DNA of 59,820 nucleotides. Origin: Acidimicrobiia bacterium. GTDB taxonomy: Bacteria; Actinomycetota; Acidimicrobiia; Spongiisociales; ZC4RG35. The stretch's first letter is position 1. The number at the start of each line of letters is the position of its first letter. The stretch spans positions 1 through 59,820 of the forward strand of contig JBGTKD010000044.1 of the NCBI GenBank assembly GCA_041744795.1, in the 5' to 3' direction. The position numbers were made by a program, and so were the translations under genes. Under the pieces are notes generated by a model. The model was not told the DNA's origin. It made no database searches and was given only the letters and a program-made list of their open reading frames with translations. Below are positions 1-16,262 of the stretch, piece after piece.

Positions 1-1358
<1,358 letters not shown>

Positions 1359-1378
1359 CGTGCGAGGGTAGTTGTGAC

Positions 1379-2146: not shown

Positions 2147-2206
2147 CGGTGTCCTCCTCGTCGCCAGTTGAGGCTACATCTCGGCCGGACCATCGGGCGA
2201 TCGATG

Positions 2207-3223
2207 TCAGGAGGGAAGTTCGGTTGGGTCGATGATCCAGACGTTCTCCTCACCCAATTCGTCGCTCAGGGATCGCACCTGTTTGCCGATCATGGCGTCG
2301 ACCCGATTCCAGACAGCCACTGCCTCATTGGCGTGGGCGCGTAGCCAGGCGTCGCGCCTGGCAGCCGCCGCCCCCGCCTGTTGTCGATTGTCCGGAACCT
2401 TCTTCTGCAGAGTGATCACCCGTTCTCCTGCGCTGGACAACCTCCGAAACGTCTCCTGGGAGTCCGGAGTCCAGACCCCCTCGAAGTTTGGGTATGCGAG
2501 CACCGGAATGAATGGGACAGCGACTTCGTCGGCTGCTTCGGCGGCGAGTGTCTCGCTGCCGAGGTTCATCGCGGTGAGGACATGCAGGTCGGGGTGGAGG
2601 GATCGTTTGGCGGCGAAGACGTCCACGAGGCGCTGGCGGATTGCCCGGCTTGCAACGGTGTCGCCGTAGCCGCCGATATCGGGTGGTCGGTGACCTATTG
2701 CGACGATGAATCGGCCCTCTGGTAAGTCCTCGGACGCGGCGCGGCGGATCTTGGGTTCGTCCGCCGGGCCGACCTCGTGTGGCGTCTTTGTGCCCTGACG
2801 TGACTCCTGGGTGGCGGCGGCCTCGACCGCCAGTCGGTCTGCCAGGTCGTTCCACCGGTCTCCCGAGTGACCCTTCACCCACCGGAACGTCAGGTCACGC
2901 TTCTGGTAGCGCTCGACGAGAGGTTCCCAGAGGTCCCGATTGGCCACCGGCTTACGCTGGCTGTTGAGCCAGCCCCGGGCGATCCAGCCTTCCCACCAGC
3001 GATCCCGAAAACAGTTCACGACATAGGTCGAATCGCTGATGATCTCCAGCGGTCCATCGAGCGACCCGACAGCCTCCAAAGTGGCGGTCAGCTCCATCCG
3101 TTGGTTGGTTGTCGGGTTGTCCGCTCCTGCTCCGAACGGTCCGTTAGGCACTATCCAGGCCCAACCGCCTGGCCCTGGGTTCCCCGAGCAAGCCCCGTCG
3201 GTGTAAACGCGTGTTCTGTCCAC
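2207..3223 (-). CDS. rnhA: Ribonuclease HI fused to C-terminal SLOG (YspA/DUF1273-like) domain
   Basis: YTDGACSGNPGPGGW, TNQRMEL, ISDS, NRDLW, WVKGHSG..N..AD give a complete RNase HI active site. C-terminal IGHRP...LGSETLAAEAA...P motif is SLOG-like. Start GTG 3223 preferred over the 3427 ORF start. Confidence 0.85.
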   Translation of the reverse strand: MDRTRVYTDGACSGNPGPGGWAWIVPNGPFGAGADNPTTNQRMELTATLEAVGSLDGPLEIISDSTYVVNCFRDRWWEGWIARGWLNSQRKPVANRDLWEPLVERYQKRDLTFRWVKGHSGDRWNDLADRLAVEAAATQESRQGTKTPHEVGPADEPKIRRAASEDLPEGRFIVAIGHRPPDIGGYGDTVASRAIRQRLVDVFAAKRSLHPDLHVLTAMNLGSETLAAEAADEVAVPFIPVLAYPNFEGVWTPDSQETFRRLSSAGERVITLQKKVPDNRQQAGAAAARRDAWLRAHANEAVAVWNRVDAMIGKQVRSLSDELGEENVWIIDPTELPS

Positions 3224-3253
3224 AGTCCGATCTTGGCATGCGAACATGCTGCG

Positions 3254-4381
3254 GTGTTCGCTCCGATCCGATCTCTCACTGCAGTCGGCCGGGGTGCGCC
3301 GCTGGCCTTGATGTCTTCGGCGGCGATCGTGACGTTCATGTTCTCGGCCACGCCCTTCTTGATCGCCGAGGTTGCCGATCGGTTCGAAATCGGACCAGGA
3401 CAGGCGGGATTGCTTTCTGTTGTCCAAGTGGGTGCGTTCGCAATCGCCAACGTCGTGCTTCCCCGGGTGTTGCAGCCTTCGGCGAGGGTCTTCAGGGTGG
3501 CGGCGATGGTCCTGATGCTGGCTGATGTTGCGAGCATCGTGACGCCCAGTTTCTCGTGGCTATTGGCGTCGAGGGTCTTCAGTGGCGCGGCGGCAGGTGC
3601 GCTTACGTGGTTGGCCTGGTCAGCAGCGATGCGCACAACTGCGGCGTTGTCGTCGATATCGGCTATCGGTCCCGTTGCAGCTCTCGTGTCCGCTCCCATC
3701 CTCGGTGCGTTGATGGTGTTCGGAGACAGAGTGATATTCGGCGTCCTGGCGTTGTCGGTATTGCCGTTGATTTTTGTGAGCCTCCCGAGCTTCGAACGTC
3801 GCCCAAACCTGGGAGAACGGAGCCGGTCGAGGTCGAATCGTGTTTTGTTGGGCGCACTGTTTCTCCTCACAGCAGCGGGAGCCGGCCTCTTCGTGTTCGA
3901 AGCGGTCGTGGCCGTTGAGCGGCTGGGCATGAGCCCTTTCGCCGCGTCGCTGGCGTTCAGCCTCAATGCAGGCGCAGGGTTTCTGGGAGCAAAGCTTGCT
4001 CCGAGGCATCGCCGGCCCGGTATCTGGTTGGCGACATCCGGTCCGGCGGCCGTGCTGACTGTCATCGGCGGAACGCCTCTCTGGTTCTACGTCGGCATGG
4101 CTTGGTGGGGCTTCGCTTTCTGGATGGGCCTGCCCGGCGTCCTGCAAATGCTCGCTGCGCGTTCGTTGCGACCCGATGAACGAGCCGGCGATGCGCAGGG
4201 TCTCATGGCGTTCGGCAGGAGTATCGGACCCGGGGTGGGAGGGGTGATGGTGGATGCAGGAAGCATTGTGACCTTGGCGGTTGTGGCGGGTGTTGGCCTC
4301 ACACTCTCGGGAGTCATCGTCGTCGGTGTTCAGGAAGGCAGGGAGGCATTGCCTCCGACCGACCTCCGTACGCTCACCTAA
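3254..4381 (+). CDS. MFS-type transporter
   Basis: About 12 hydrophobic segments in two halves, with ERAGDAQG loop; likely start GTG 3254, divergent from rnhA across 30 bp. Confidence 0.75.
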   Translation: MFAPIRSLTAVGRGAPLALMSSAAIVTFMFSATPFLIAEVADRFEIGPGQAGLLSVVQVGAFAIANVVLPRVLQPSARVFRVAAMVLMLADVASIVTPSFSWLLASRVFSGAAAGALTWLAWSAAMRTTAALSSISAIGPVAALVSAPILGALMVFGDRVIFGVLALSVLPLIFVSLPSFERRPNLGERSRSRSNRVLLGALFLLTAAGAGLFVFEAVVAVERLGMSPFAASLAFSLNAGAGFLGAKLAPRHRRPGIWLATSGPAAVLTVIGGTPLWFYVGMAWWGFAFWMGLPGVLQMLAARSLRPDERAGDAQGLMAFGRSIGPGVGGVMVDAGSIVTLAVVAGVGLTLSGVIVVGVQEGREALPPTDLRTLT

Positions 4382-4402
4382 ATACACCGGTACCGTTCTG
4401 AC

Positions 4403-5296
4403 ATGCCCGAACTGCCCGACATTGTCGTGTATCTCGAAGCGCTCGGGCGCCGGATCGTTGGCAGGGAGGTGCGGGGATTTCGGGTGGCGTCACCGTCGGT
4501 TTTACGGACCTACGACCCGCCGTACGACGCCGTGGTCGGCCGGACGGTGATCGCACTAGACCGCATCGGCAAGCGGCTGGTCTGGGAGATGACAGGGGGG
4601 CTGCATCTCGTAATCCATCTGATGGTCGCTGGCCGGCTCCGATGGTCCGAGAAGCCTTTGACCCAAGTGCCGAAGAAGGTAGGACTATGCGTCTGGGACT
4701 TCGAGGGGGGCTCGCTCCTTCTCACCGAACAAGGGACGCACAAGCGGGCCGGGGTATGGATCTTTGCCGATCGAGAGTCGGCTTTCGCAGAGGACAGGGG
4801 AGGGGTGGAGCCCTTGGAAGTTTCGCGAGACGCCTTTGCTGCTGCCCTGACCAGGGAGAATCGAACCTTGAAAAGGGCTCTCACCGATCCTCGGATCTTC
4901 TCGGGCATTGGTAACGCGTTTTCCGACGAGATCCTGTGGGAAGCCGGGCTCTCACCGGTCAAGCGAACCAGTCAACTCTCGCATGGTGAAGTCGACCAGC
5001 TCTACAAAGCCACTAGAGACTCGCTGATACGGTGGACAGAGATGCTGAGGGAGTCAGTCGGCGAAGGCTGGCCGGACCGGGTCACAGCCTTCCGGCCCGA
5101 GATGGCGGTCCACGGTAAGTTCGGCGAACCATGCCCACGCTGTGGAGCGAAGGTCCAGCGCATCGTTTACGCATCCAACGAGACCAACTATTGCGCTGTG
5201 TGCCAGACCGGTGGCAGGCTTCTGGCGGACCGCTCGCTCAGCCGCCTCCTCAAAGACGACTGGCCGGCGACCATCGAAGATCTGGAAGACAGGTGA
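4403..5296 (+). CDS. Fpg/Nei family DNA glycosylase/AP lyase
   Basis: N-terminal MPELP, RIGKRL, HLMVAG, H2TH GIGNAFSDEIL, zinc finger CPRC...CAVC; leaderless TACCGT-N6-ATG. Confidence 0.92.
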   Translation: MPELPDIVVYLEALGRRIVGREVRGFRVASPSVLRTYDPPYDAVVGRTVIALDRIGKRLVWEMTGGLHLVIHLMVAGRLRWSEKPLTQVPKKVGLCVWDFEGGSLLLTEQGTHKRAGVWIFADRESAFAEDRGGVEPLEVSRDAFAAALTRENRTLKRALTDPRIFSGIGNAFSDEILWEAGLSPVKRTSQLSHGEVDQLYKATRDSLIRWTEMLRESVGEGWPDRVTAFRPEMAVHGKFGEPCPRCGAKVQRIVYASNETNYCAVCQTGGRLLADRSLSRLLKDDWPATIEDLEDR

Positions 5297-5347
5297 GGGC
5301 TCCATCGACCACGATGGAGCCCTCATCGTGTTCACTACGTCACAGGA

Positions 5348-5650
5348 TCAGTTGTTGACGTAACCGCTGCAGTTGTCGAGGTCGCCAGGTGACCCCTGCA
5401 CCCACATCACCGCTTCTCCACCACGCCAGCCTGGCTGGCCGAGGTGGACGTTGACGTGCAACGGGTGTCTGCGCCCCTCGGCGTACGAGCCGGCGTGGGG
5501 GAGCTCGACCTTGGCTTCGTGGCCTTGGCCTCCCAGGATCACGCATGCTCCGTTGCCGGTGGCCCGCACGTGGGTGTGGGTCGCCCAGGCGGGCGCCGCC
5601 GCCATAAGCACCAGGAGCGCTGCGAGGATCGTCGTTGTCAGTGCCCTCAT
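5348..5650 (-). CDS. Small secreted His-rich protein (100 aa)
   Basis: SD GAAAGGA before ATG 5650; Sec signal MRALTTTILAALLVLMAAAPAWA; mature part has 7 His and 2 Cys; ECF-type promoter upstream. Confidence 0.7.
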   Translation of the reverse strand: MRALTTTILAALLVLMAAAPAWATHTHVRATGNGACVILGGQGHEAKVELPHAGSYAEGRRHPLHVNVHLGQPGWRGGEAVMWVQGSPGDLDNCSGYVNN

Positions 5651-5681
5651 CTCTGTCCTTTCTCGAGGGGTCACTCATACG

Positions 5682-5708
5682 GACGAACACCGACGCCGGA
5701 TGGGTGAC
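5682..5708 (-). promoter_or_regulatory. ECF promoter motif A (GTCACCC-N16-CGTC), copy 1
   Basis: Minus strand GTCACCC ATCCGGCGTCGGTGTT CGTC CGTA; the same motif and spacing occur at 8023-8049 and 12112-12138. Confidence 0.7.
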
Positions 5709-5709
5709 G

Positions 5710-6441
5710 TCAGGAGTCGGAAAGGCCGAGGCCGGCAAGCAGGCCGAGACCGACCAGGGCCTGAACGGCGAGGATGCCGCCGATGATCCAGACGATCATT
5801 CGACCTATACGGGCCGCTCGCACGGCCTGGGGGTCGGGCGGAGATGCAGCCTCTCCGGCCACCGCCCGCGCGTGATCCCGCACGATCGTCCCGTGGACGA
5901 GACCGATGACCGGCAAGACCATGAGGGTGGCGGCATGCAACAAGCCCATAAGCAGGAAGAGCCCTGCAATGCGGTCAAGTAGGAACCGGATCGCTTCACC
6001 GACGTCGGCGGACCCCGACATCTGCCGGTGCCATGAAAGGATGATCACGTAGCCGCCGAAGACCAGGTGGAACGCCACGTCTTGCAGGCGGAGGAAACTC
6101 CTTGCCGTCCTGGGGTCCAGGCGAAACACGTCCGACAGGTAGGCCTGTCCGAAGCGCGGGATGATCCGGTCGAGCACGATGACGGCGGTGGTGAGGATCG
6201 CGAGCTGAGCGACAAACACCGCCCATCCCGAGATCGTGGCTTCTGCCCGATCCGTCGAGGTCCATAGAAAGGCGGCCACGGCCGTCGTTGCGGCGAGGCC
6301 CGCAGCAGTGAAGCGCCTGACACGGCGTCTATGTAGGCGGTCTTGCTGGACGCTTGCCTCGACGCGGGCGAACAGATCCGGCGCGGGCTCGACCCGGTCG
6401 AACTCGGACAGGGCGTCGACGAGACGGTCTTCTACGCTCAT
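5710..6441 (-). CDS. Putative membrane anti-sigma factor (N-terminal cytoplasmic helix plus multi-TM domain)
   Basis: ATGA overlap with the ECF sigma stop; MSVEDRLVDAL...PAPDLFARV...RRRVRR-TM is the typical actinobacterial anti-sigma layout; C-terminal domain is paralogous to 6989-7378. Confidence 0.7.
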   Translation of the reverse strand: MSVEDRLVDALSEFDRVEPAPDLFARVEASVQQDRLHRRRVRRFTAAGLAATTAVAAFLWTSTDRAEATISGWAVFVAQLAILTTAVIVLDRIIPRFGQAYLSDVFRLDPRTARSFLRLQDVAFHLVFGGYVIILSWHRQMSGSADVGEAIRFLLDRIAGLFLLMGLLHAATLMVLPVIGLVHGTIVRDHARAVAGEAASPPDPQAVRAARIGRMIVWIIGGILAVQALVGLGLLAGLGLSDS

Positions 6442-6989
6442 GCTGGCTCAAGCAGTTCCCGCATCGACGCCATGCCTCGCTGGCAATGGGTCTTCACCGA
6501 GTTCGACGAGATGCCGAGGGTCGATCCGATCTCACGCTCGCTCAGGTCGAAGTAGAAGCGGAGGACCAGGCACTCCCGCTGGCGCAGTGACAGGGAGAGC
6601 AGGGCGTCGATCACCTCTGCCTGGCTCTCGGTTCGGACCACCGTGTCGTCGGGGCGGTCGGGGTGACCTGGTAGCTCTGCGGATTGGAGGTGTCTGAGTG
6701 AGAGCAGCCCGCGACGATTGTGATCCCTCGCGAGGTTGAGGACAATCGAACGCAGATACGCCGCCGATTTGGCGCGGTCCTCGATTCGGTGGGCCGATCG
6801 ATACAGCCGGATGAATGCCTCCTGCACCAGGTCTTCGGCAGCGTTCTTATCGTCGGTAAAGATCCGTGCCAATCTGACGAGTGAGGTCGCCTCCCTCTCG
6901 AAGAGTTCGACAACGAACTGACGGCGCCCGGGATCGCCAGTAACACCTTCAGCGATATCAAGAGCTGTGAGCAGCTCGATGCTCAGCAT
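6438..6989 (-). CDS. ECF RNA polymerase sigma factor (actinobacterial SigE-like)
   Basis: Region 2 AAEDLVQEAFIRLY...AYLRSIVLNLARD; region 4 LSLRQRECLVLRFYFDLSEREIGSTLGISSNSVKTHCQRG; ATG 6989 overlaps the upstream TGA. Confidence 0.92.
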   Translation of the reverse strand: MLSIELLTALDIAEGVTGDPGRRQFVVELFEREATSLVRLARIFTDDKNAAEDLVQEAFIRLYRSAHRIEDRAKSAAYLRSIVLNLARDHNRRGLLSLRHLQSAELPGHPDRPDDTVVRTESQAEVIDALLSLSLRQRECLVLRFYFDLSEREIGSTLGISSNSVKTHCQRGMASMRELLEPA

Positions 6990-7378
6990 CAGGTCGCTGG
7001 CGTGTCGGTCTCGAGTTGGCGCGTCAATCCGAGCAGGCGGCCGACGAGCGGAAGGCTTAGGACGTTGAAACCGTGGAGGATGCCCATCAACAGCAGCATC
7101 CCCCCGATCCGGATCAGCTCGGCCTCCACCTGGGTGCCGATGGATGCACTTCGCCATTCGCGCCGTTGTTCGATTGCCACGGTGAAGAGGATGTAGGCGG
7201 TGAAGATCAGGTAGTAGGCGACGTCCATCAGCACCAGGTAGCTCTTGCCGGTCCTCGGGTTGGCGCGAAAGATGTCTCCGGCGTACGCACGGCCAAAGCG
7301 CTTGATCAGAGGCCCGAGCCCGAAAACGATCGACAAGAGGACGACGTTGGTGACGATCTCGACCGCCCACCAACTCAC
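6989..7378 (-). CDS. Small 3-TM membrane protein, paralogue of the anti-sigma membrane domain
   Basis: SD GAGGTGA; three hydrophobic helices; shares RFG.AY..D.FR..PRT..S.L.L.DVA and RI.G..LLMG.LH with 5710-6441. Confidence 0.75.
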   Translation of the reverse strand: MSWWAVEIVTNVVLLSIVFGLGPLIKRFGRAYAGDIFRANPRTGKSYLVLMDVAYYLIFTAYILFTVAIEQRREWRSASIGTQVEAELIRIGGMLLLMGILHGFNVLSLPLVGRLLGLTRQLETDTPAT

Positions 7379-7405
7379 CTTGTCACCTCGACTTTCTCGA
7401 GGGAA

Positions 7406-7993
7406 TCATGGCACCGAGATCAGGTCCGCGTCGACCGGAATAGGTTGCTCCAGCGGGCGCGCCCAGCGATCGGCGAGCCAGGCCCACCCGACCGTCACTC
7501 CGAGGAACATCGGAACGTTCAGGACCGGCCCCGCACCCAGTTCGGTCAGCTCCCGCAAGACCTCGGAGTTGACGAACAGTGGGCCGATCACCACAGCGGT
7601 CAGCCCGGTGACGGCGATCGCCCTTCGGGCCGCGTATGTCCTCGTGATCAGTGTCACCCACGTGGTCGTGATACCGCCGAACATCGCTCCGATCCCCACG
7701 ATGAGAAACATCGTTCCTTCGATCGTGAACTCAGGTGTCCTGGATTCGTCGAGGATTGCCACGATCCTCATCGCCAGCCGGTAACCGGGTCCCAAGACCA
7801 GGACACCGGCCAGCCCGCCTGCGATCGCCGCGCGGAACACGGTGCGCCAGAAGTTCGGAACGTACTTCCATCCGATCGCCACCCCGCCGCCGACGATTAC
7901 CAGCGCCCCGATGGGGCCGAGAAACAGGTCGCCGACGAAGATCGCCGCAGGTCCGGAAGCAGCGGCGAGCAACGCCGCACGTCGGGCAGTCAT
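7406..7993 (-). CDS. Integral membrane protein of unknown function (first gene of the ECF operon)
   Basis: About 6 TM segments; SD GAAAGGA before ATG 7993 (alternative start 8008). Confidence 0.65.
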   Translation of the reverse strand: MTARRAALLAAASGPAAIFVGDLFLGPIGALVIVGGGVAIGWKYVPNFWRTVFRAAIAGGLAGVLVLGPGYRLAMRIVAILDESRTPEFTIEGTMFLIVGIGAMFGGITTTWVTLITRTYAARRAIAVTGLTAVVIGPLFVNSEVLRELTELGAGPVLNVPMFLGVTVGWAWLADRWARPLEQPIPVDADLISVP

Positions 7994-8022
7994 GAGTGTC
8001 CTTTCCATTGCTCACCCCTACC

Positions 8023-8049
8023 GACGAACAAGTGCTCCCATCGGGTGAC
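8023..8049 (-). promoter_or_regulatory. ECF promoter motif A, copy 2 (probable autoregulatory promoter of the sigma operon)
   Basis: Minus strand GTCACCC GATGGGAGCACTTGTT CGTC GGTA. Confidence 0.7.
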
Positions 8050-8063
8050 AAGGGATTTCTGCC

Positions 8064-9173
8064 TTACGCGGAGGCGCCGAGCCGCGTGAACATGAAGGCC
8101 TTGCGGTTTTCTGTCGCGTCGTAGACCTCGACCTCAAATGCGACGTCGAAAGGCGGGTTCTCGAAGTGCAACGTCGCTTCGAATGATCCTGTCTCCGATG
8201 TTGGCACCTTGGTCCAGCCGTAGGCAGAGTTGATCTTGACCCATGAGTTGGGGGCTGCGGTCCCCCAGAAGACGTCGTGTGAGTCATTCGAACTTCCGAA
8301 TTTCTGCTGAACGGCCAGCTCGTAGGACTTCCAGACGAAGTGGTAGGTCTGGTCGAAGCCATGGGAATTTGTGACTCGCACTCCAATAACTGTCCCGGCC
8401 GGGACGTCGAAGTGCACTCGTAGGTACCAGTCGCCTTGTTCGCCGACGATGACCTCAGCGGACCCGTGATCCGAGGTAGCCCTTACGGTTGTGCCCTCCG
8501 GGCCGGTCCCGTAGAACTTCGTCCACGGCTCGGTGTTCTCGGCGTACTTCTGGGCGATAGTCCAGTCGGTCTTCGTTGTCGCCGTGGTCTTTGTGGTGGT
8601 CGTGGTTGCCTTCGCGGCGAGGTGGCTGAAGCTGTAATTGTTGATCCAGCCGGTGGATGTACTCACCGTCACGGCAAACGACGAGCCGGCCGTCGATTTG
8701 AAGGAAATGCCTAGGACCCAGTTCCCCGACTTGTCAATGATGGTCGACGCCGACCCGTGCGGGCTCCTAGCAGTGATCTTCATACCCGGACTTCCGGTTC
8801 CGTAGAACTTTTCGTATGGCGTCTCGCTGGCTGTCACCTTCTGGGTGATCGACCAAACAGGCTGGTCTCCCAACTTTGGGACCTCGACCGTCTCGGACTT
8901 ATCGGCATCCTCGGTTTCGTTCGCAATCTTCGTCGCAATCTTCGTCTCGGTTTTCGTCTCGGACTTTCCGGTTGCCCGGGTTTTCGTCAACGAATCTGAC
9001 TGCGATGTCGTGACGATCCTGTCCGCGGCTGGAAGGTCGACGGTTTGTGTGGCATACGCTGGCCACTCGTCAGGTTCGGTTGATTCCCCGGCCAGAAGAC
9101 CGGTCTGGGCCATCGCCACCCCCGTCAGGGCGACTACCGCGAATCCGGCCACGAACATCAAGACGTGTCTCAT
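8064..9173 (-). CDS. Secreted protein with three ~80-aa beta-rich (Ig-like) repeats
   Basis: Signal peptide ending VAMA; repeats QK...F[YW]GT...S.[HY]G.....G.[WF]...F; Thr/Lys-rich linkers; SD GGAG. Confidence 0.75.
   Translation of the reverse strand: MRHVLMFVAGFAVVALTGVAMAQTGLLAGESTEPDEWPAYATQTVDLPAADRIVTTSQSDSLTKTRATGKSETKTETKIATKIANETEDADKSETVEVPKLGDQPVWSITQKVTASETPYEKFYGTGSPGMKITARSPHGSASTIIDKSGNWVLGISFKSTAGSSFAVTVSTSTGWINNYSFSHLAAKATTTTTKTTATTKTDWTIAQKYAENTEPWTKFYGTGPEGTTVRATSDHGSAEVIVGEQGDWYLRVHFDVPAGTVIGVRVTNSHGFDQTYHFVWKSYELAVQQKFGSSNDSHDVFWGTAAPNSWVKINSAYGWTKVPTSETGSFEATLHFENPPFDVAFEVEVYDATENRKAFMFTRLGASA
8919..8966 (-). repeat. In-frame 12-nt degenerate tandem repeat x4 (KSET-KTET-KIAT-KIAN)
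   Basis: AAGTCCGAGACG AAAACCGAGACG AAGATTGCGACG AAGATTGCGAAC on the minus strand. Confidence 0.6.
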
Positions 9174-9197
9174 TAGTGCTCCGTTCTGTCACGAAGT

Positions 9198-9227
9198 CAC
9201 TCGTCCAAACCCCCGTGCGAGGTTTAC
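9198..9227 (-). promoter_or_regulatory. ECF promoter motif B (GTAAACC-N17-CGAGTG) for the secreted repeat protein
   Basis: Minus strand GTAAACC TCGCACGGGGGTTTGGA CGAGTG ACTTC; mirrors the copy at 9274-9302. Confidence 0.6.
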
Positions 9228-9273
9228 CGCCGTTTCAAGAATGCGATGCCTACGAGAACGGAGAGCCGGTCAA

Positions 9274-9302
9274 GTAAACCTTTCGGGCTGCCGATGCGAG
9301 TA
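9274..9302 (+). promoter_or_regulatory. ECF promoter motif B (GTAAACC-N16-CGAGTA) for the second sigma operon
   Basis: GTAAACC TTTCGGGCTGCCGATG CGAGTA CTTCC, ending 9 nt before ATG 9312. Confidence 0.6.
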
Positions 9303-9311
9303 CTTCCACAG

Positions 9312-9845
9312 ATGAACCGGAGATCCGGCGTGATCGGAGCAACGACAACCGGCGAGCATCTCGTCTGCCTTGAAACCTTCGAGGCCTTTTACCGGCGTGA
9401 GTTCCGCAAGTTGGTCGCGTTCGTGCTTGCCCTCTCGGGCAGTAGGGCAGCAGCCGAGGATCTGGCTCAGGAAGCGCTCATGGTGGCGCACGCCCAGTGG
9501 GAGAGGGTGTCTGTGATGGATCGACCGGATGCATGGGTACGCCGAGTGGCGTCGAACATGGCGGTGAGTATGTATCGCCGGCGCATGGCGGAGTTGAAAG
9601 CGGTCACTCGCCTCGCCGGTCACCGCCAAGACTCCATCGCTCCTATGGAACCTGACGATGAAGCCTTCTGGAAGGCAGTGCGGTCACTACCGAAGAACCA
9701 GGCGACTGCCATCGCTTTGCACTACCTCGAGGACCGCCCGGTTAGCGACATCGCCGAAGTGCTCGACTGCAGCCCGTCCACCGCCAAGGTCCATCTCCAC
9801 CGGGGTCGCAAGGCCCTCGCCGAGAGGTTGGAGGTGAGGTCGTGA
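9312..9845 (+). CDS. ECF RNA polymerase sigma factor (SigE-like), second copy
   Basis: FEAFYRRE, AAEDLAQEAL, PDAWVRRVASN; region 4 LPKNQATAIALHYLEDRPVSDIAEVLDCSPSTAKVHLHRGR. Confidence 0.92.
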   Translation: MNRRSGVIGATTTGEHLVCLETFEAFYRREFRKLVAFVLALSGSRAAAEDLAQEALMVAHAQWERVSVMDRPDAWVRRVASNMAVSMYRRRMAELKAVTRLAGHRQDSIAPMEPDDEAFWKAVRSLPKNQATAIALHYLEDRPVSDIAEVLDCSPSTAKVHLHRGRKALAERLEVRS

Positions 9846-10723
9846 TGGATCTCGACACCCGGGCACGAGATGCGGCCGACGGTTTGCGTCGTTCGGTGGC
9901 CGAATCGAACCTCACCTTGACCGAGCCGCCCTCGGTCCGCACGCGTACTTGGAACCCGGCGTGGGCGATGGCAGCCGGCGCGATCACCGCGTTCGTGCTC
10001 GTATTCGGTATCTGGTCGCTGCGGCCGACCGTGGTGGCGGACGACCTCGAGACAACCACGACGACCATCGAAGTAACGACCACAACCGCTCTGCCAACGA
10101 CGACAACGGCTCCGTTACAGGAGACTTCGGTTGCCCCCGCCCCGGTTCCGGCCGCGCCGGTCGTGTTCATTACGATCGCCTCTCCGGTTGACGGCCAGGT
10201 GTTCACGGAGAGTCACATCACTTTTAGCGGAACAACCGAGCCAGGAGCTCGCGTGTTCGGCGGCCCGTACGAAGCCACAGTCGATGAGACAGGTAACTGG
10301 TCGATCCTGCTGATCCTTTCGGAAGGCTCGAACACAGCCACGTTCACTGCAGTCGATACGGCAGGCAATGAGGTTTCGGCGAGCGTCACCGCTGTCTATC
10401 AACCCGTCAAGGAACCGCCCAAGGAACCTGTCAAAGACCCGCTTAAGGAGCCCGTCAAAGACCCGGCCCCATTCGCGGCTTACGCCATGTTCACCGAGAC
10501 GAATGGAGACCCGGCTTACGGCGAGTACTACGGAACCGGCCAGCCCGGGAGCCTCGTCATGGCAGTCTCGGCCTGGGGGAGTAGCGAGACAGTGGTCAAC
10601 GCGGATGGCAACTGGAATCTGAAGGCAACCTTCAAGAATGCGCCGATCGGGACTCAGTTTGAGGTCAAGGTCAAAGATGATTTCGGCCGTTACGTCTACT
10701 TTCCAATGTCCAGGACTTCTTGA
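9842..10723 (+). CDS. Putative single-TM anti-sigma factor with extracellular Ig-like domains
   Basis: GTGA overlap with the sigma; short N-terminal helix, TM, Thr-rich stalk, Ig-like domain (ITIASP...SGTTEPGA...GSN...AVDTAGN), KEP linker, and a C-terminal domain homologous to the 8064-9173 repeats. Confidence 0.7.
   Translation: MMDLDTRARDAADGLRRSVAESNLTLTEPPSVRTRTWNPAWAMAAGAITAFVLVFGIWSLRPTVVADDLETTTTTIEVTTTTALPTTTTAPLQETSVAPAPVPAAPVVFITIASPVDGQVFTESHITFSGTTEPGARVFGGPYEATVDETGNWSILLILSEGSNTATFTAVDTAGNEVSASVTAVYQPVKEPPKEPVKDPLKEPVKDPAPFAAYAMFTETNGDPAYGEYYGTGQPGSLVMAVSAWGSSETVVNADGNWNLKATFKNAPIGTQFEVKVKDDFGRYVYFPMSRTS
10406..10465 (+). repeat. In-frame 12-nt tandem repeat x5 encoding [VPL]K[ED]P
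   Basis: GTCAAGGAACCG CCCAAGGAACCT GTCAAAGACCCG CTTAAGGAGCCC GTCAAAGACCCG. Confidence 0.7.
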
Positions 10724-10739
10724 CGGTCATCTCGGCTGG

Positions 10740-10765
10740 GGAACCATCGTCTCGACAAGTTCGTC
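10740..10765 (+). promoter_or_regulatory. ECF-type promoter GGAACC-N16-CGTC
   Basis: GGAACC ATCGTCTCGACAAGTT CGTC; same TTCGTC -10 as motif A, with a classical GGAAC -35. Confidence 0.5.
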
Positions 10766-10793
10766 TCACTTCTATCAAGTGAGAGGACTGACA

Positions 10794-12107
10794 ATGACGA
10801 AGTCGTGGAAACTCGCCGCTGTGATAGCGCTGCTGATCAGCGCCTGCACCGGCTCCGGTGACTCCTCCGAATTGTTCAACGTATCCGATGGGTCGCCCGC
10901 TTCCCCAACGACGACGATGGCAGCCGACGACCGCGCGGGTGGCGAAGGCGACGTCGACGAAGAACAACCCTCGTCTGACCTCGAAAGTGGGGGAGTGGTG
11001 GCCACTCCACTGATTCAAACCGCAGCCGATCTGGGTCGAGACATCATTTTCATAGCTGACATGACAGTCGCCGTGAACGACGTTGCCGAAGCCGGGAACG
11101 AGGCCACCCAACGGATTCAAACCCTTGGTGGATTCCTGTTCGGACAGCGCACCACCGCCAGTCCGGACGCGCGCAGCGTCCTCGTGTTCAAGGTCTTCCC
11201 CGAGGACTTTCAGGAGGCTCTCGTCCGGCTCGGCTCGATCGGCGAACTGCGGAGCCAGAACGTGACGGCCGACGACGTGACCGAACGAGTAGTCGATATT
11301 CGCAGCCGTATCACGACCGCCGAGGCGAGCGTCGAGCGGCTCCGCGGGTTCTTGGAAGCTGCCACGGACATCAAGACGATCGCCGATCTCGAGAATCAAC
11401 TCCTTCAGCGCGAGACTCAGTTGGAGACACTCCGCGGTCAGCTCCGAACTTTGGAAGATGCCGTCTCGCTGGCGACGATCACGCTGACGATCACCGAGAA
11501 CACCGTCCGACCCGGCGTGCGCGTCGACGTGACCGCCTATCCGGGCGCCGACGACGAGGGTTTGGCCTGTCCTGGCAGCTCCTCTCTCACTGTCGATCAG
11601 CGGACGGCGGTAACTGTGTGCTTCGAGATCGTGAACGTAGGGGACACCGATCTGACCTCATTCACGCTGCGCGACCCCGTGATTGGCGTTTCCGACGAAG
11701 ACCTCATCCCGGTCTTCGGGGACATGTCTCAGATCCTGGAGCCCGGCCAGTCCATCGTCATGGCAGCCCAGATCATCGCTGATCGCAGTTGGCGAACCCA
11801 GACGAGTGTTACCGCTCTTCCGGTAGACGACGACGGAACAGTCCGTGAAGGCCGGTCGGTGGCAAACGTGGCCACAATGTCGATCAGTGCCGTGGATCCG
11901 GGTGGTGTTCCCGGTTTTGGCGAAGGTCTGGAGCGCAGTTTCGAACTGCTCGTCCTGCTTGCCCAGCTCGCTGTCTACTTACTGGCGGCTCTCCTCCCGT
12001 TCTTCTGGATCCCGCTGGGTATTTGGTGGCTGATGCGCCGACGCCCCCCACAAGTTCCACAAGATGCCGAAGAGAGCGAAGAGTCAGAGCCCGTTACAAC
12101 CGGCTGA
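10794..12107 (+). CDS. DUF4349-domain lipoprotein with extra Ig-like domain and C-terminal TM
   Basis: Lipobox ISAC; IIFIADMTV...DVTERVVD...RL...IADLENQL...LETLRGQ...LATITL coiled-coil pattern of DUF4349; C-terminal LLPF..IPLGIWWL-RRR. Confidence 0.78.
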   Translation: MTKSWKLAAVIALLISACTGSGDSSELFNVSDGSPASPTTTMAADDRAGGEGDVDEEQPSSDLESGGVVATPLIQTAADLGRDIIFIADMTVAVNDVAEAGNEATQRIQTLGGFLFGQRTTASPDARSVLVFKVFPEDFQEALVRLGSIGELRSQNVTADDVTERVVDIRSRITTAEASVERLRGFLEAATDIKTIADLENQLLQRETQLETLRGQLRTLEDAVSLATITLTITENTVRPGVRVDVTAYPGADDEGLACPGSSSLTVDQRTAVTVCFEIVNVGDTDLTSFTLRDPVIGVSDEDLIPVFGDMSQILEPGQSIVMAAQIIADRSWRTQTSVTALPVDDDGTVREGRSVANVATMSISAVDPGGVPGFGEGLERSFELLVLLAQLAVYLLAALLPFFWIPLGIWWLMRRRPPQVPQDAEESEESEPVTTG

Positions 12108-12111
12108 ACGC

Positions 12112-12138
12112 GTCACCCGAATCGCGCCTCCTTTCGTC
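12112..12138 (+). promoter_or_regulatory. ECF promoter motif A, copy 3
   Basis: GTCACCC GAATCGCGCCTCCTTT CGTC TGTA. Confidence 0.7.
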
Positions 12139-12158
12139 TGTAGTTCGAAAGGAGGCGC
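12124..12158 (+). promoter_or_regulatory. 13-bp stem-loop sequestering the SD of the downstream gene
   Basis: GCGCCTCCTTTCG-TCTGTAGTT-CGAAAGGAGGCGC; the right arm contains SD AAAGGAGG. Confidence 0.7.
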
Positions 12159-12160
12159 AA

Positions 12161-12772
12161 ATGACGCAACGAGTAGGTGCCCTGTGCGGGCTGGCATTTG
12201 TCGGACTGCTGGTGTGGTCGTTCTCAATCCACGCCGGTTTCGAGGCTTCTCCGGAGAATTCCGACCTCGTGATCATGGCCGAGATGAGTGATGTGGGAGA
12301 TGACGCGGGTACGGCGACGGTCATCGCCATGTTCTCGATCCCGTTCCTGTTGGCGTTCGGTGGGTTCGTACGTGATCGATTCGCGCGCAGCGGTGTTCCC
12401 GGTTGGCTGGGTGCTGTTTTCCTGTCGGGGTCTGTCCTGCTCGCTGTGGCGCTGATGTTGATCATGGCCATGGGTCAAATGGCCTCGACGGTTGGAGGTA
12501 TCGCTGGTGGCGAAGCCATCGCCCGACTGGTCATTGTCTATGGGTGGAACAGTTCGACGCTATTTGTCCCGGCGCTATTCGCGATTGGTGCCAGCGCCCT
12601 TTTTGCGACGATTGAGGCAGGAGCGCTTCCGCGGCCCGTCGGGTATGGCGCCGCGCTCGTAGCGGTGTCGGCCCTTGCTCCGTGGGTGGGGTTTCTCGTG
12701 CTCTTGGCGTGGATCGCAGTGACCAGCTTGGTGCTGGCGCGCGAACCTGCCGACGAGTTGGTCACCGTGTAA
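12161..12772 (+). CDS. Multi-pass membrane protein (about 6 TM), unknown function
   Basis: Strong SD AAAGGAGG, ATG 12161; hydrophobic throughout. Confidence 0.7.
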   Translation: MTQRVGALCGLAFVGLLVWSFSIHAGFEASPENSDLVIMAEMSDVGDDAGTATVIAMFSIPFLLAFGGFVRDRFARSGVPGWLGAVFLSGSVLLAVALMLIMAMGQMASTVGGIAGGEAIARLVIVYGWNSSTLFVPALFAIGASALFATIEAGALPRPVGYGAALVAVSALAPWVGFLVLLAWIAVTSLVLAREPADELVTV

Positions 12773-12778
12773 AGCATC

Positions 12779-12807
12779 TTGCGTATCGAACACATGTTCG
12801 ATACGGT
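12779..12807 (+). promoter_or_regulatory. Sigma70/SigA promoter with LexA SOS box in the spacer
   Basis: -35 TTGCGT, 17-nt spacer containing TCGAAC-ACAT-GTTCGA (12786-12801), -10 TACGGT; matches the actinobacterial LexA consensus. Confidence 0.9.
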
Positions 12808-12855
12808 GTCTGGTTCCGGGCGCGCTGTCCGGGACCAGACATCAGGAGTGGGTGC

Positions 12856-13527
12856 TTGTCTTCTACGGCGGTTCGAACCGAGGTCCTGGCGGGGACGATG
12901 GATCGATGGGACTTGCGGACGCGCCTACGGGAACGGGATTCCGATCTGCTGGTCCTCCAACCCGGACGACCCGTCGAATTGACCGGCCCGGTCGGGTTCG
13001 GGCTGACCCGGATCGGATATCGCATGCTGGCCGCACCCTCTCTGGCCTCTCCGGTAGTCATCCTCGATGTTCGAGGATGGGCTTCTCCCCAGGCGGCCTG
13101 GGAGACGGGTGTCAGGATGCCGATCATCGTGCGTTGTTCTGATCCGACCGTTTGGCCCAAGGTGGCGGCCGCTCTGTTGGAAGGGGTTCCGGCCATGTAT
13201 GCCGAGATCCCCGGGGGGATCAGGGACCAGGACCTTCGTCGTCTTGCTGCCCTCGTTCGTGCCCGCCAGGGAAGGGTGGTGTTTCGACCGTTGACCGGAG
13301 GGTTGCCAACCGGCGTGGGATACCTGCGTTTGCGCGCCAGCCAGGTTCGCTGGGACGGCCCGGACAGTGGTCATGGACGGTTGATCGAGCGACGTCTCGT
13401 ATTGGAGGCATCCGGAAAAGGCGTGGCCGGAATGAACCGGACAATCGAGGTGAACGATGCCGGAACCCACAATCTGCGTGTGGTGTCCGACCTGGCCGCT
13501 GAGTCGGCCGGACGCTCCTTCGGATAG
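12856..13527 (+). CDS. imuA: ImuA'-like RecA-fold mutasome accessory protein
   Basis: Lies behind the SOS box and directly upstream of imuB; degenerate P-loop (GPVGFGLT), AAALLEG, RRLAALVR, W.G...GHGRL..R motifs of actinobacterial ImuA'; SD AGGAG before TTG 12856. Confidence 0.75.
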   Translation: MSSTAVRTEVLAGTMDRWDLRTRLRERDSDLLVLQPGRPVELTGPVGFGLTRIGYRMLAAPSLASPVVILDVRGWASPQAAWETGVRMPIIVRCSDPTVWPKVAAALLEGVPAMYAEIPGGIRDQDLRRLAALVRARQGRVVFRPLTGGLPTGVGYLRLRASQVRWDGPDSGHGRLIERRLVLEASGKGVAGMNRTIEVNDAGTHNLRVVSDLAAESAGRSFG

Positions 13528-14929
13528 GGCTGTCATAGTCGTTGGTGCTCCCCACAAAGGGGTGTCCCGTGTTGTCGCGGCTGATGAGCTTGCTTCGGGT
13601 GTCACCCGCGGCATGCCTCGCCGGGAGGCGGAGGGATTGTGTCCCGGGGCAACCGTTTTGTTACGTGACCTCGAAGAAGAGGCGCGACGTTTCGAACCCG
13701 TGATTCGCATGATCGAAGAACTCGTACCGCGGGTCGAGGTCGTCGAGCCCGGTCTGATCCTTGTTCCGGTCAGTGGCGCCCTCAGGTATTACGGGGATAG
13801 TCGGGCGGTGGCAGACCTCATCGATGGCAAGTTGCGTGCCGGGGGCATAGACGCCCGGATCGGCTTGGCGGATGGCCCGTTCGCAGCCACCTGGGCGGCA
13901 CGTACGGCATCCGTCGACGGCCCAAACCTGGTTGCCGACACCCGGTCGTTCCTAGCCAACCTCGACATTTCTGTCATCGATCACGACGATCTCGTTGCGA
14001 CCTTCCGCTGGCTGGGAGTCACCACTCTGGGATCGCTCGCCGGGCTGCCGCGGGATGCAGTTGCTTCCCGGTTCGGCGATCTCGGGCTGTCTGTTCATCG
14101 ATTGGCCCACGGCGAGGACCGCCAGATCGACCCTCGCAGGATTCCACCGGAACTGGCGGTCGAATCGAAGTGGGAGGAGCCGCTGGAGTTGTTGGACCAG
14201 GTGGCGTTTGCGGCCCGGGCTCTGGCTGTGAAACTCGTTGCCGGTCTCAGACAGGAGGGAATTGCCCCGCATCGGATCGTCGTCGAGGCAGAGACCGACG
14301 ACGGCGAGACGCGTTCGCGGGTATGGCGCTCGTCGGATCCCTTCACAGAGGATGCGCTGTCGGAGCGAGTCCGTTGGCAGCTTCAGGCCTGGATCGACGA
14401 ACGACGCCGTACCGGCGGGGGAATCGTCCGGTTACGGCTGGATCCATCGGATCTTTCCGGAGAAGGTAGACAGTTGGGTTTCTTCACTGATGAGGCTGCC
14501 AGAGTCGAGGCCGAGCGAGCGTTGGCTCGTGTCCAGACCCTTGTGGGACCGGACGGGGTACTGGAGGCGGTGGCACAGGGCGGCCGGCTGCCAGCGGAAC
14601 AGGTTGCCTGGTACCGATGGCAGGAACAAGCCGTGGTGACCCGCGACCCGATGGCGCCATGGCCAGGGGCAACTCCCGGGCCTTCTCCTGCCCTCGTTCC
14701 GCCCGAACTCCGGCCCCTGGAAGTCGAATGGGACGGCCCGTACCCGGTCAGGGTTCGGCTGGGGACCAGATGGGAACCAGTGCTCAACTGGGCGGGACCG
14801 TGGCGGATGACAGGTTCATGGTGGAAAGGAGACCAGGCCATCGATCGCTACCAGTTGGTGACCTCGGTCGGTGCTTTCCTCTGCGTGGTCCGCAACGGCC
14901 ACACCTTCTTGGCAGGTGTCTACGACTGA
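13457..14929 (+). CDS. imuB: ImuB, inactive Y-family polymerase
   Basis: CVWCPTWP, GVTRGMPRREAEGLCP, EARRFEPV, LGVTTLG, beta-clamp-like QLGFF, PWPG, WAGPW...WW, C-terminal GVYD. Confidence 0.88.
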   Translation: MPEPTICVWCPTWPLSRPDAPSDRAVIVVGAPHKGVSRVVAADELASGVTRGMPRREAEGLCPGATVLLRDLEEEARRFEPVIRMIEELVPRVEVVEPGLILVPVSGALRYYGDSRAVADLIDGKLRAGGIDARIGLADGPFAATWAARTASVDGPNLVADTRSFLANLDISVIDHDDLVATFRWLGVTTLGSLAGLPRDAVASRFGDLGLSVHRLAHGEDRQIDPRRIPPELAVESKWEEPLELLDQVAFAARALAVKLVAGLRQEGIAPHRIVVEAETDDGETRSRVWRSSDPFTEDALSERVRWQLQAWIDERRRTGGGIVRLRLDPSDLSGEGRQLGFFTDEAARVEAERALARVQTLVGPDGVLEAVAQGGRLPAEQVAWYRWQEQAVVTRDPMAPWPGATPGPSPALVPPELRPLEVEWDGPYPVRVRLGTRWEPVLNWAGPWRMTGSWWKGDQAIDRYQLVTSVGAFLCVVRNGHTFLAGVYD

Positions 14930-15669
14930 CGAACGAATTCCGTCAGGTGGCTGGCGATGATGGCATGGGTCTCGATCCGAAGATTGTCCAACTCGGCGGG
15001 CGACAGGCCGTCGGTTTCGATCGCCTTGTCAATGATGACCGTGACGTGTGAGTTGCCTTTGATCCATGGACTATTTGGCTTCCATGCCTCCCACGTCCCA
15101 TGGATGGTCACCGGCAGGATGGGCATACCTGCGGCCGACGCCATGGCGAAGGCCCCCTTCTTGAAGGGTTGAAGATCCCCGTGATAGCTACGAGTCCCTT
15201 CCGGGTAGATGATGAGCGAGTGGCCGCGTTCGATGACCGGCTTCGACTGCAGATTCACCGACGCGATCGCCGCTGCCCGTCCACTGCGATCGACTTCCAC
15301 GATCCCGACAGCGCGCATCGCTTGAGCCAAGATCGGAACATTGAACAACTCCTTTTTGGCGAGGTACCGGATCGGCAGGGGGATAGCGGAGAAGCAAGCA
15401 ACGACATCGAGATTGGAGATGTGGTTCGCGACCACCACGTGCGATCTGTTCGTATCGACATTCTCAGCACCTCTTACCTCCAAGGTGCAACGGGCAGCCT
15501 TCAACCATCGTTGGGCCCACCACTCGATAAGTCTCTCGATTCGAGGATCGCTGGGATTTCTCGACCCGAGGAACCAGGCGACCATGCCGGCGCCGAGCGT
15601 CGTGTAGGCGGCGGTGAACGCGAAGACGAGTGTCCGAGGAACGGTCCTCAAGTACGAGAACATGAACAT
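14920..15669 (-). CDS. plsC: 1-acyl-sn-glycerol-3-phosphate acyltransferase (PlsC family)
   Basis: NHISNLD, AKKEL, VDR, YPEGTRS, FKKGAF motifs; start at 15669 or 15663. Confidence 0.88.
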   Translation of the reverse strand: MFMFSYLRTVPRTLVFAFTAAYTTLGAGMVAWFLGSRNPSDPRIERLIEWWAQRWLKAARCTLEVRGAENVDTNRSHVVVANHISNLDVVACFSAIPLPIRYLAKKELFNVPILAQAMRAVGIVEVDRSGRAAAIASVNLQSKPVIERGHSLIIYPEGTRSYHGDLQPFKKGAFAMASAAGMPILPVTIHGTWEAWKPNSPWIKGNSHVTVIIDKAIETDGLSPAELDNLRIETHAIIASHLTEFVRQS

Positions 15670-15715
15670 GTCAGCGTACAGAGCAGTCCCCGGTGACGCC
15701 GATACCCTGCCTTGC

Positions 15716-16255
15716 ATGACTCACCAGGGAAAGGCCGCACTGCGACGCCAATTACGGGGACGTCCTCCGGTTAGCGCGGAGGAGTCTGCTGCCGTGACAA
15801 CGCAGCTTCGCCGCTGGTTAGCCGACCGACCAGGCAACGTCCTCATATACCTCCCGATGCCAGGCGAGTTGGATGTGACAGGTGTCGTGGACGAGCGTCA
15901 TCGGTGGTTTGTGACGCGTACCCCTCCGGATGACCTGCCGCTGACCGTTCACCCCATCGAAGCGCCGCGCGAGGTGCACCGCTTGGGATATGACCAGCCC
16001 GTGGCAGACAGCGAAACGCTTGACCCGGGTTCTCTGGACATTGTTCTCACACCGTCGCTGTCGCTTGCTCGGGATGGGACCCGCCTCGGGTGGGGAAAGG
16101 GCTATTACGACCGTCTGTTTGCCGCGGCGACGAGCGCGGTGGCGGTCGGTGTCACATTGGAGCGACTGCTCGTCGACTCCCTACCGACTGAAATCCACGA
16201 CCGTCGGATGGACTGGCTGGCCACCGAGAGAGGGGTCGGATCCGTCACCGACTGA
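15716..16255 (+). CDS. 5-formyltetrahydrofolate cyclo-ligase
   Basis: KAALR, GELD, RLGWGKGYYDR, LPTEIHD..MD..ATE; leaderless TACCCT-N7-ATG. Confidence 0.88.
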   Translation: MTHQGKAALRRQLRGRPPVSAEESAAVTTQLRRWLADRPGNVLIYLPMPGELDVTGVVDERHRWFVTRTPPDDLPLTVHPIEAPREVHRLGYDQPVADSETLDPGSLDIVLTPSLSLARDGTRLGWGKGYYDRLFAAATSAVAVGVTLERLLVDSLPTEIHDRRMDWLATERGVGSVTD

Positions 16256-16262
16256 CTGGGTC

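Follow-up and report, generated by a model that had tools for sequence, protein, structure and literature searches.

Two extracytoplasmic function sigma factor modules of an Acidimicrobiia genome, each linked to a stand-alone paralogue of the non-cytoplasmic part of its putative anti-sigma factor

[quoted passage not shown] Here we describe two adjacent ECF cassettes from an Acidimicrobiia bacterium. They lie within a 59,820-nucleotide stretch of contig JBGTKD010000044.1 (assembly GCA_041744795.1), and this whole stretch is called the window below. Each cassette consists of a sigma gene, a gene at the +1 position for a putative membrane-bound anti-sigma factor, and a gene for a free-standing protein built from a domain of that anti-sigma factor.

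Two described systems come close to this design. In Bacillus subtilis, SigM is held at the membrane by a complex of YhdL and YhdK, both encoded by the sigM operon, and the control is described as probably allosteric rather than proteolytic (PMC11081497, PMC6827917). The second system is that of sigma-I and its anti-sigma factor RsgI. In C. thermocellum, RsgI proteins are reported to carry CBM3 or GH10 modules that are shared with the sigma-I-controlled cipA, cel9V and xyn10 genes (PMC4711584). In B. subtilis, RsgI and the wall synthase PBP1 are reported to have interchangeable disordered regions (PMC9732909). For ECF sigma factors in general, a reclassification reports that most putative anti-sigma factors match no Pfam anti-sigma domain, and that the clade of groups ECF38, ECF39, ECF51 and ECF222 shares an anti-sigma type (PMC7826278).

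The two sigma/anti-sigma pairs were mapped from open reading frames (ORFs) and their translations. Cassette 1 has its pair at 5710-6989 on the minus strand and cassette 2 at 9312-10723 on the plus strand. Sigma 1 (183 residues, 6438-6989) precedes putative anti-sigma 1 (243 residues, 5710-6441), the start of which overlaps the sigma-1 stop (ATGA). Sigma 2 (177 residues from the ATG at 9312; 9312-9845) and putative anti-sigma 2 (293 residues, 9842-10723) overlap in the same manner (GTGA). The stand-alone paralogue of cassette 1 is M129, a 129-residue membrane protein encoded at 6989-7378 (minus strand), and its stop overlaps the sigma-1 start at 6989 by 1 nt. Judging from these 1-nt and 4-nt overlaps, the genes are translationally coupled. 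The paralogue of cassette 2 is a 369-residue secreted protein (8064-9173, minus strand). The initial annotation of the locus had described pairs on opposite strands, each near a gene made of the anti-sigma's own domain, and the gene map and alignments confirm this. Homology, gene order, promoter motifs and conservation can all be read directly from the data presented here. On balance, they make it probable that the locus holds two independent self-activating ECF modules, in each of which the sigma factor's own promoter also drives a stand-alone protein paralogous to the non-cytoplasmic portion of the anti-sigma factor, with a pairing of M129 and a loop in cassette 2 as outlined below. Co-regulation is well supported in silico. 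What we infer is the physical mechanism: that the +1 proteins bind the sigma factors, that the paralogues touch each other, and which signals are sensed.

In cassette 1, M129 and residues 70-184 of anti-sigma 1 are 39% identical over 117 residues (E = 3e-26). Anti-sigma 1 starts with a short cytoplasmic N-terminus and a transmembrane helix, continues with a diverged copy of this membrane (M) domain (~70-184) and ends with an extra C-terminal transmembrane helix. The host genome assembly is 2.6 Mb and 90% complete, and all genome-wide counts refer to it; the M domain occurs there in the M129 and anti-sigma 1 genes only. M129 has 2209 homologues, none with a Pfam family. They are hypothetical proteins where named and come from Acidimicrobiia where a taxon is given, and a profile search of 1.84 billion representatives found only 495 proteins. 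M129 thus defines an unannotated membrane-protein family. Its best AlphaFold2 model (pLDDT 85.6) has three long helices. Fold searches with M129 were uninformative. The best Foldseek match has an E-value of 0.72, and the best VIA matches (Z up to 9.5) are generic helical bundles, below the level that is meaningful for helical proteins. An M129 homologue that is 76% identical (P0042) has no named family in the Atlas, and its sole strong neighbour among modelled structures is a 204-residue actinobacterial hypothetical protein. This neighbour is most likely a form in which the M domain is fused to the anti-sigma factor.

In cassette 2, the shared element is a repeat, termed Crep, that is predicted to be immunoglobulin-like (Ig-like). 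The secreted protein has a signal peptide, a low-complexity linker and three Crep repeats, which are 33-40% identical to residues ~221-282 of anti-sigma 2 (E = 1e-9, 4e-9 and 3e-5). The initial annotation had named a lack of significant similarity within the paired domains as refuting; the similarity is significant in both cassettes, with E-values of 3e-26 for M129 and of 1e-9 to 3e-5 for Crep. Anti-sigma 2 has a conserved N-terminal peptide, a transmembrane helix, a Thr/Pro linker, an Ig-like domain (residues 110-184, Glucodextran_B/Big_6 in Pfam), a Pro/Lys linker and Crep (~210-293). The repeat is found in just these two genes of the genome, plus one weak, stop-containing match (E = 0.0058). 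The Crep domain of anti-sigma 2 is predicted with high confidence to be a seven-strand sandwich (pLDDT 97.1). The nearest structures are Ig-like sandwiches, none of them at E <= 0.001 (best 3.2e-3), and include macromomycin (TMq 0.69), an ancillary domain of a carbohydrate esterase (0.63) and the BIg domain of SiiE (0.53). Sub-threshold Big_6 matches occur in 21 of 35 Crep members at E <= 1, the best (7.6e-5) being below the gathering score, and the 369-residue protein likewise has a weak Big_6 match. A profile match of Crep to the tandem Ig-like repeats of 4p99 in the Protein Data Bank (PDB) is weak per repeat, and phmmer searches of the PDB with the secreted protein and with anti-sigma 2 found nothing significant. 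A word-index homologue search with the C-terminal domain of anti-sigma 2 returned the window's own protein only, which is a limit of the index.

Each cassette has its own promoter motif. Exactly three sites in the genome match that of sigma 1, GTCACCC-N16-CGTCNGT. They all fall within this locus, and the reversed-pattern control has none. One site (5679-5708, minus strand, GTCACCC-N16-CGTCCGT) lies ahead of sec108, which encodes a small His-rich secreted protein with a signal peptide (one N-terminal hydrophobic segment) and two Cys residues (5348-5650, minus strand). Another (8020-8050, minus strand, TGTCACCC-N16-CGTCGGT) ends 11 nt before the start of memb200. This gene encodes a 200-residue multi-pass membrane protein (7406-8008, minus strand) and, in this clade, opens the sigma-1 operon. 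The third (12112-12141, plus strand, GTCACCC-N16-CGTCTGT) lies ahead of memb12, a gene beyond cassette 2 that encodes a 203-residue multi-pass membrane protein (12161-12772, plus strand). The position of this motif places memb12 in the sigma-1 set rather than in cassette 2, and both sec108 and memb12 are predicted sigma-1 targets. The sigma-2 motif, GTAAACC-N16/17-CGAGT, has two sites in the window, arranged back to back. One has a spacer of 17 nt and lies ahead of the secreted paralogue (9199-9227, minus strand); the other has a spacer of 16 nt and ends 10 nt before the sigma-2 ATG (9274-9301, plus strand). At least two sites were obtained in 0 of 100 shuffles, and the genome has no others. 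The predicted exact-motif outputs of sigma 2 are therefore its own operon and the secreted paralogue only. As each sigma operon lies behind its own target motif, both sigma factors would be autoregulated, at least in silico. The initial annotation had proposed a separate repeated motif for each cassette, and this holds genome-wide, with three sites for sigma 1 and two for sigma 2, all confined to the locus.

Conservation was followed in 60 relatives, in 301 genomes of the class and in 20 fetched cassette-2 loci. Crep is present in 40 of the 301 genomes, 35 of which belong to the window's order. The divergent layout, with a secreted Big-plus-Crep protein on one side and sigma 2 followed by anti-sigma 2 (N-terminus, Big, Crep) on the other, was found in 7 of the 20 loci. 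A close divergent Crep pair occurs in 11 genomes, the intervening sigma not having been checked in G251, G255, G157, G143 and G150. The secreted protein of most relatives has the layout of the entire ectodomain, with one Big domain, one to three Crep domains and no enzyme domain; the window's secreted protein has three Crep domains and no Big domain. The Crep domains of anti-sigma factors (n = 8) form one clade among 41 domains (support 89/91), and 0 of 500 label shuffles were as clustered. Therefore, the paralogy is old and maintained rather than the result of a recent copying event. The promoters are conserved too. The shared spacer has a sigma-2 motif on both strands in all eight loci with this layout, including the window, and the -10 element is CGAGT or CGTGT. 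In 17 of the 20 loci, the gene for the secreted paralogue has the motif upstream, and these include 10 of the 13 loci that have no adjacent sigma 2. Five further genomes were checked, and each has just two exact sites genome-wide, which lie in the shared spacer.

Cassette 1 occurs in two forms. In type A, M129 is followed by sigma and by an anti-sigma factor with an M domain, whereas in type B sigma is followed by an anti-sigma factor with one M domain. Type A was found in 12 of the 60 relatives and type B in 10, and one further relative has a 28-residue fragment. Across the class, 45 of 301 genomes have the M domain. Two copies are present in 22, all in the window's order (the window's own genome is among them, and so is G289, which is unpublished; without G289 the count is 21). 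In other orders, all 14 domain-bearing genomes have a single copy, and all 12 fetched loci are type B, with the M domain fused to the anti-sigma factor beside a sigma gene; the strict motif precedes sigma in seven of these. No genome searched had a stand-alone form without an anti-sigma copy beside it. In the M-domain tree, stand-alone and fused type-B domains make up one slow cluster. The copies on type-A anti-sigma factors evolve fast and group apart from it (support 83/90), with branch lengths of 1-6 versus ~0.2 in the slow cluster. Per alignment column, identity averages 76% in the stand-alone set and 50% in the type-A anti-sigma factors. All three classes share 23 core positions, and E7, D52 and H102, which lie in hydrophobic helices, are among them. 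Another 20 positions, of which many fall in the 26-46 loop, are conserved in stand-alone and fused type-B domains only; K26, R30, N40 and K45 belong to this set. This pattern suggests that the fused form is ancestral and that the conserved module became a separate, released subunit in the window's order. M129 thus resembles a conserved ancestral module split from the anti-sigma factor, and is likely to have become a co-anti-sigma factor or sensor subunit. Since the module is found both fused and split, a heteromeric unit of M129 and anti-sigma 1 would be the simplest explanation.

The sigma-1 motif moves with these arrangements. The gene directly downstream of it is M129 in 7 genomes, memb200 in 3 and sigma itself in 9 type-B loci. 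The distance to M129 is ~30 nt in the seven type-A genomes and the distance to the sigma start is 7 nt in the nine type-B loci. In type-B loci L099-L110, L021 and L023, it is the end of the motif that lies 7 nt before the sigma start codon, and this spacing suggests leaderless or near-leaderless transcripts. One relative (G048, family f2) has a 166-residue secreted His-rich protein (L016 1989-2489) inserted between M129 and sigma, with separate copies of the motif before M129 and before sigma. Therefore, M129 would be a separate transcription unit there. The motif is also found before homologues of memb200, memb12 and sec108 in relatives. Homologues of memb200 are at the equivalent position in G010, G011 and G024, the sec108 homologue of G040 (60% identity) is likewise behind the motif, and the memb12 homologues of G001 and G002 keep it. 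In G001, a genome of the same genus, memb12 keeps both position and motif (L044 7524-8186; L089), and the sigma-1 homologue is on another contig. Both the synteny and the cassette-specific promoters thus recur in relatives, and the gene-neighbourhood conservation that the initial annotation had asked about does exist.

Are the two cassettes related to each other? The initial annotation had called them twins, a description that does not hold. The sigma factors are 27% identical. The two anti-sigma families give an hhalign probability of 1.9% and are therefore taken to be unrelated, and the idea that one cassette is a duplicate of the other was rejected on these grounds. Relatives that have both cassettes always have them on different contigs. 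In addition, the same-genus contig G001:C204 is collinear with window positions 84-5293 and 8058-18125 and has ~90 bp in place of 5297-8057, so that cassette 1 is missing. The nearest copies of cassette 1 are in G010 and G011, which belong to another genus (82-94% amino acid identity; 94% and 92% for M129). The flanks of cassette 1 in G010 have no match to the window, and neither G010 nor G011 has a match to the 369-residue secreted protein. Because a collinear contig lacks cassette 1 and its flanks in G010 are unmatched, cassette 1 looks like a self-contained 2.76-kb module that was recently inserted next to cassette 2 in this lineage. A G+C-rich hairpin (5297-5322), between a convergent left-flank gene (stop at 5296) and sec108, is at the left edge of the insertion. 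The genus-mates carry type B elsewhere, and no second copy of cassette 1 was found in the 90%-complete genome itself. A caveat concerns the junctions: contigs from public runs diverge at 8051 (two runs) and at ~5329-5346 (two runs), and none of the listed pieces bridges these points.

Both sigma factors have Sigma70_r2 and Sigma70_r4_2 domains in Pfam without region 3, and both pass TIGR02937, the ECF superfamily model (81.4 and 66.6 bits versus a cut-off of 42.9). The top NCBIfam match of both is TIGR02983, the SigE family, with 137.9 bits for sigma 1 and 125.7 bits for sigma 2, scores that are below the curated cut-off of 141.55. Therefore, they can be described as SigE-family-like only. The +1 proteins have a short conserved N-terminal peptide followed by a transmembrane helix. 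We call them putative anti-sigma factors because of this conserved N-terminus, the helix and the overlap with the sigma stop codon.

How might the modules work? We propose that they reached the same layout by different routes. Cassette 1 would have started as a sigma factor and an anti-sigma factor with a highly conserved three-helix M domain, a form that is found class-wide. In the window's order, the M domain would then have been duplicated. The conserved copy would have become a separate gene, M129, which either opens the sigma operon or has a promoter of the same type to itself, and anti-sigma 1 would have kept the fast-evolving copy and gained one extra transmembrane helix. M129 might then pair with the degenerate copy on anti-sigma 1, giving a two-protein membrane anti-sigma factor and sensor like YhdL-YhdK. 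Cassette 2 might be a closed homeostatic loop. In this loop, the tethered Ig-like domains of anti-sigma 2 would report on a wall or surface ligand that is bound by the free protein, or on the free protein itself. A stronger version is possible, although we hold it with considerable doubt. Both modules could be self-measuring switches in which the anti-sigma factor tethers a copy of the sigma factor's product. Sigma 2 would serve only to keep the amount of a secreted Ig-like surface protein constant, its occupancy being read through like-with-like contacts of free and tethered domains, and anti-sigma 1 would monitor the released, more abundant M subunit via its degenerate copy. If this were true, it would be a general, previously unnamed route to product feedback in ECF systems.

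Other explanations deserve attention. The most serious, although we think it rather unlikely, is that the paralogues share a ligand without touching each other. The anti-sigma factor would then carry the binding module of the output in order to sense the output's substrate or surface, as in the sigma-I/RsgI design, where C. thermocellum RsgI has CBM3 or GH10 modules and sigma-I6 is reported to activate a GH10 xylanase and CBM3-containing genes (PMC4711584). This would suit Crep, apparently a generic Ig-like sandwich near esterase ancillary (TMq 0.63) and adhesin BIg domains, and it would suit the anti-sigma and secreted Crep clades, which are old, set apart from each other and free of signs of concerted evolution. 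What it fits less well is the lack of a Crep fold match at E <= 0.001 and the fact that the secreted protein of most relatives copies the whole ectodomain and has no enzyme domain. It also leaves cassette 1 unexplained, whose module other orders carry as a fused part of the anti-sigma factor. Cassette 1 is also the main obstacle to the decoy or feedback sink put forward in the initial annotation, in which the stand-alone copy, once induced, would rival the anti-sigma factor's domain for the ligand or protease that acts as inducer, and the response would thereby be damped. Both paralogues are behind their sigma factor's own promoter, so their levels would rise with sigma activity, and sigma 2 has no other exact-motif target. 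However, the stand-alone M copy is far more constrained than the sensor copy (76% versus 50% column identity), and it groups with the ancestral fused domain of other orders, the opposite of what is expected for a mere competitor. A decoy is thus a poor fit for the slow-evolving M129, and we regard it as improbable overall.

Perhaps there is no functional link at all, and the stand-alone genes encode common envelope proteins, products of local duplication that belong to the regulon like any other member. Local duplication is the simplest origin of neighbouring paralogues, and the sigma-1 motif is also found before unrelated envelope genes, namely sec108, memb12 and, in another order, a Cu/Zn superoxide dismutase gene. 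Nevertheless, the pairings persist across several families, in some genomes unlinked yet with the motif kept, the paired domains occur nowhere else in the genome, and the fused and split M forms are alternatives to each other. This makes the lack of a link distinctly improbable. Least probable of all, and with very little chance in our view, is that the +1 genes do not encode anti-sigma factors but membrane-anchored regulon products, the sigma factors being controlled otherwise. The absence of a Pfam anti-sigma domain from both +1 proteins and the length of their cytoplasmic N-termini (only ~40 residues) would agree with this. Set against it are the +1 position, the overlapping codons, the conserved N-terminal peptides and the transmembrane helix that follows them, a layout that fits the working definition used for putative anti-sigma factors in the ECF reclassification (PMC7826278).

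Several points weigh against our reading of two self-activating modules that each drive a paralogue of their sensor. The data on cassette 2 are equally well explained by the logic of a shared ligand without contact between the paralogues. Pfam and NCBIfam searches at E <= 0.1 found no anti-sigma family in either +1 protein, and all topologies, including that of the "cytoplasmic loop", were assigned by a script that scores hydropathy and by the positive-inside rule. Of the five models of M129, a single one is confident, and the other four have pLDDT values of 66-73. The M-domain tree contains long branches, which can mislead. The regulons rest on exact motif matches, and with one mismatch allowed the genome has 42 more sigma-2-like sites, a number close to background. 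Finally, the relatives are not independent of each other and most of their genomes are metagenome bins.

A few further features of the locus should be mentioned. Anti-sigma 2 is followed by a gene for a lipoprotein with a DUF4349 domain (Pfam E = 7.6e-39) and a C-terminal transmembrane helix (10794-12107, plus strand). The gap between the two genes is 70 bp, and the lipoprotein also has a weak DUF7507-like region. It is probably co-transcribed with cassette 2, yet it is not a conserved part of it, as it follows anti-sigma 2 only in the same-genus G001 (1 of the 20 fetched loci). An alternative 311-residue ORF for sigma 1 (6438-7373, minus strand) was rejected as a high-G+C artefact that is over-extended across M129 in another frame, the true start being at 6989. 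Similarly, an ATG at 9246 was rejected as the sigma-2 start because it is upstream of the promoter and because the G001 orthologue starts at the Met equivalent to 9312. Pfam searches with sec108, memb200 and memb12 found no family, an Rfam search of 5000-13000 found none either, and sigma-70-type promoters in the locus are not above chance. No RNA datasets that contain the locus are listed. An exact 11-mer, CCTCGAGAAAG, occurs just upstream of the M129 and sec108 starts (7392-7402 and 5658-5668, minus strand), and at 7392-7408 it forms a short hairpin over the ribosome-binding site. It is not above chance, the same count being reached in 20 of 100 shuffles at <=1 mismatch.

There is one lead to the signal of sigma 1. 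In another order, a Cu/Zn superoxide dismutase gene (Pfam Sod_Cu, 1.3e-20) is divergent behind a sigma-1-type motif (L106 2923-3525, G323). Among the motif-preceded genes this is the only Sod_Cu member, and the idea that sec108 and the 166-residue His-rich protein of G048 are also like Cu/Zn superoxide dismutases is unsupported by Pfam and BLASTP. A metal or oxidative signal is therefore a weak lead.

What makes the locus worth attention is that it offers two compact, conserved and apparently minimal regulons, from the poorly studied Acidimicrobiia, in which the output is a copy of the sensor. Cassette 1 provides a natural series of fused and split versions of one sensor module, and cassette 2 is a predicted one-product regulon. 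The sensing logic of both can be tested directly with small sets of reporters. The two orthogonal sigma/promoter pairs are also possible parts for synthetic circuits.

How novel is the arrangement? The initial annotation knew of no description of it. Among the titles listed by phrase searches of the literature, there was no description of a stand-alone membrane anti-sigma paralogue as a regulon member. The main text of the ECF reclassification, as distinct from its supplements in which the groups are described, has no mention of DUF4349, "Acidimicrobi", "decoy" or "same domain" (PMC7826278). To this extent the claim stands. However, the sharing of modules in the sigma-I/RsgI system (PMC4711584) and the two-protein anti-sigma factor of SigM (PMC11081497) have been reported, so the ingredients are known. 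The locus is a conserved variant of ECF signalling that partly resembles known systems.

The sigma factors themselves are like actinobacterial SigE-family ECFs (TIGR02983), being two-domain proteins with a membrane protein at +1, with the reservation that both scores are below the cut-off. Our comparison with the ECF38/39/51/222 clade assumes that TIGR02983 corresponds to it. For cassette 2, the parallel is sigma-I/RsgI, in that Crep is common to anti-sigma 2 and to a secreted product preceded by the motif. The differences are that the sigma factors here are ECFs rather than sigma-I factors and that Pfam lists only Ig-like families in anti-sigma 2. Furthermore, the outputs of RsgI systems are enzymes or scaffolds with other domains, whereas here the sole exact-motif output is in essence a free copy of the sensor ectodomain. 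For cassette 1, the parallel is SigM and YhdL-YhdK. Both are ECF operons, autoregulated in the case of SigM and predicted to be so here, with a small multi-pass membrane protein beside the anti-sigma factor. In 12 of the 60 relatives, M129 either belongs to the sigma operon or follows a sigma-1 motif of its own. The gene order differs (sigM-yhdL-yhdK in B. subtilis versus M129-sigma-anti-sigma here). YhdK, unlike M129, is not presented as a paralogue of the membrane part of YhdL in the accounts cited (PMC11081497, PMC6827917). Neither a Pfam family nor an informative fold match was obtained for the M domain, which is likened to YhdK on the basis of layout. Nevertheless, if M129 and anti-sigma 1 form the complex we envisage, the analogy suggests that cassette 1 most likely works like YhdL-YhdK.

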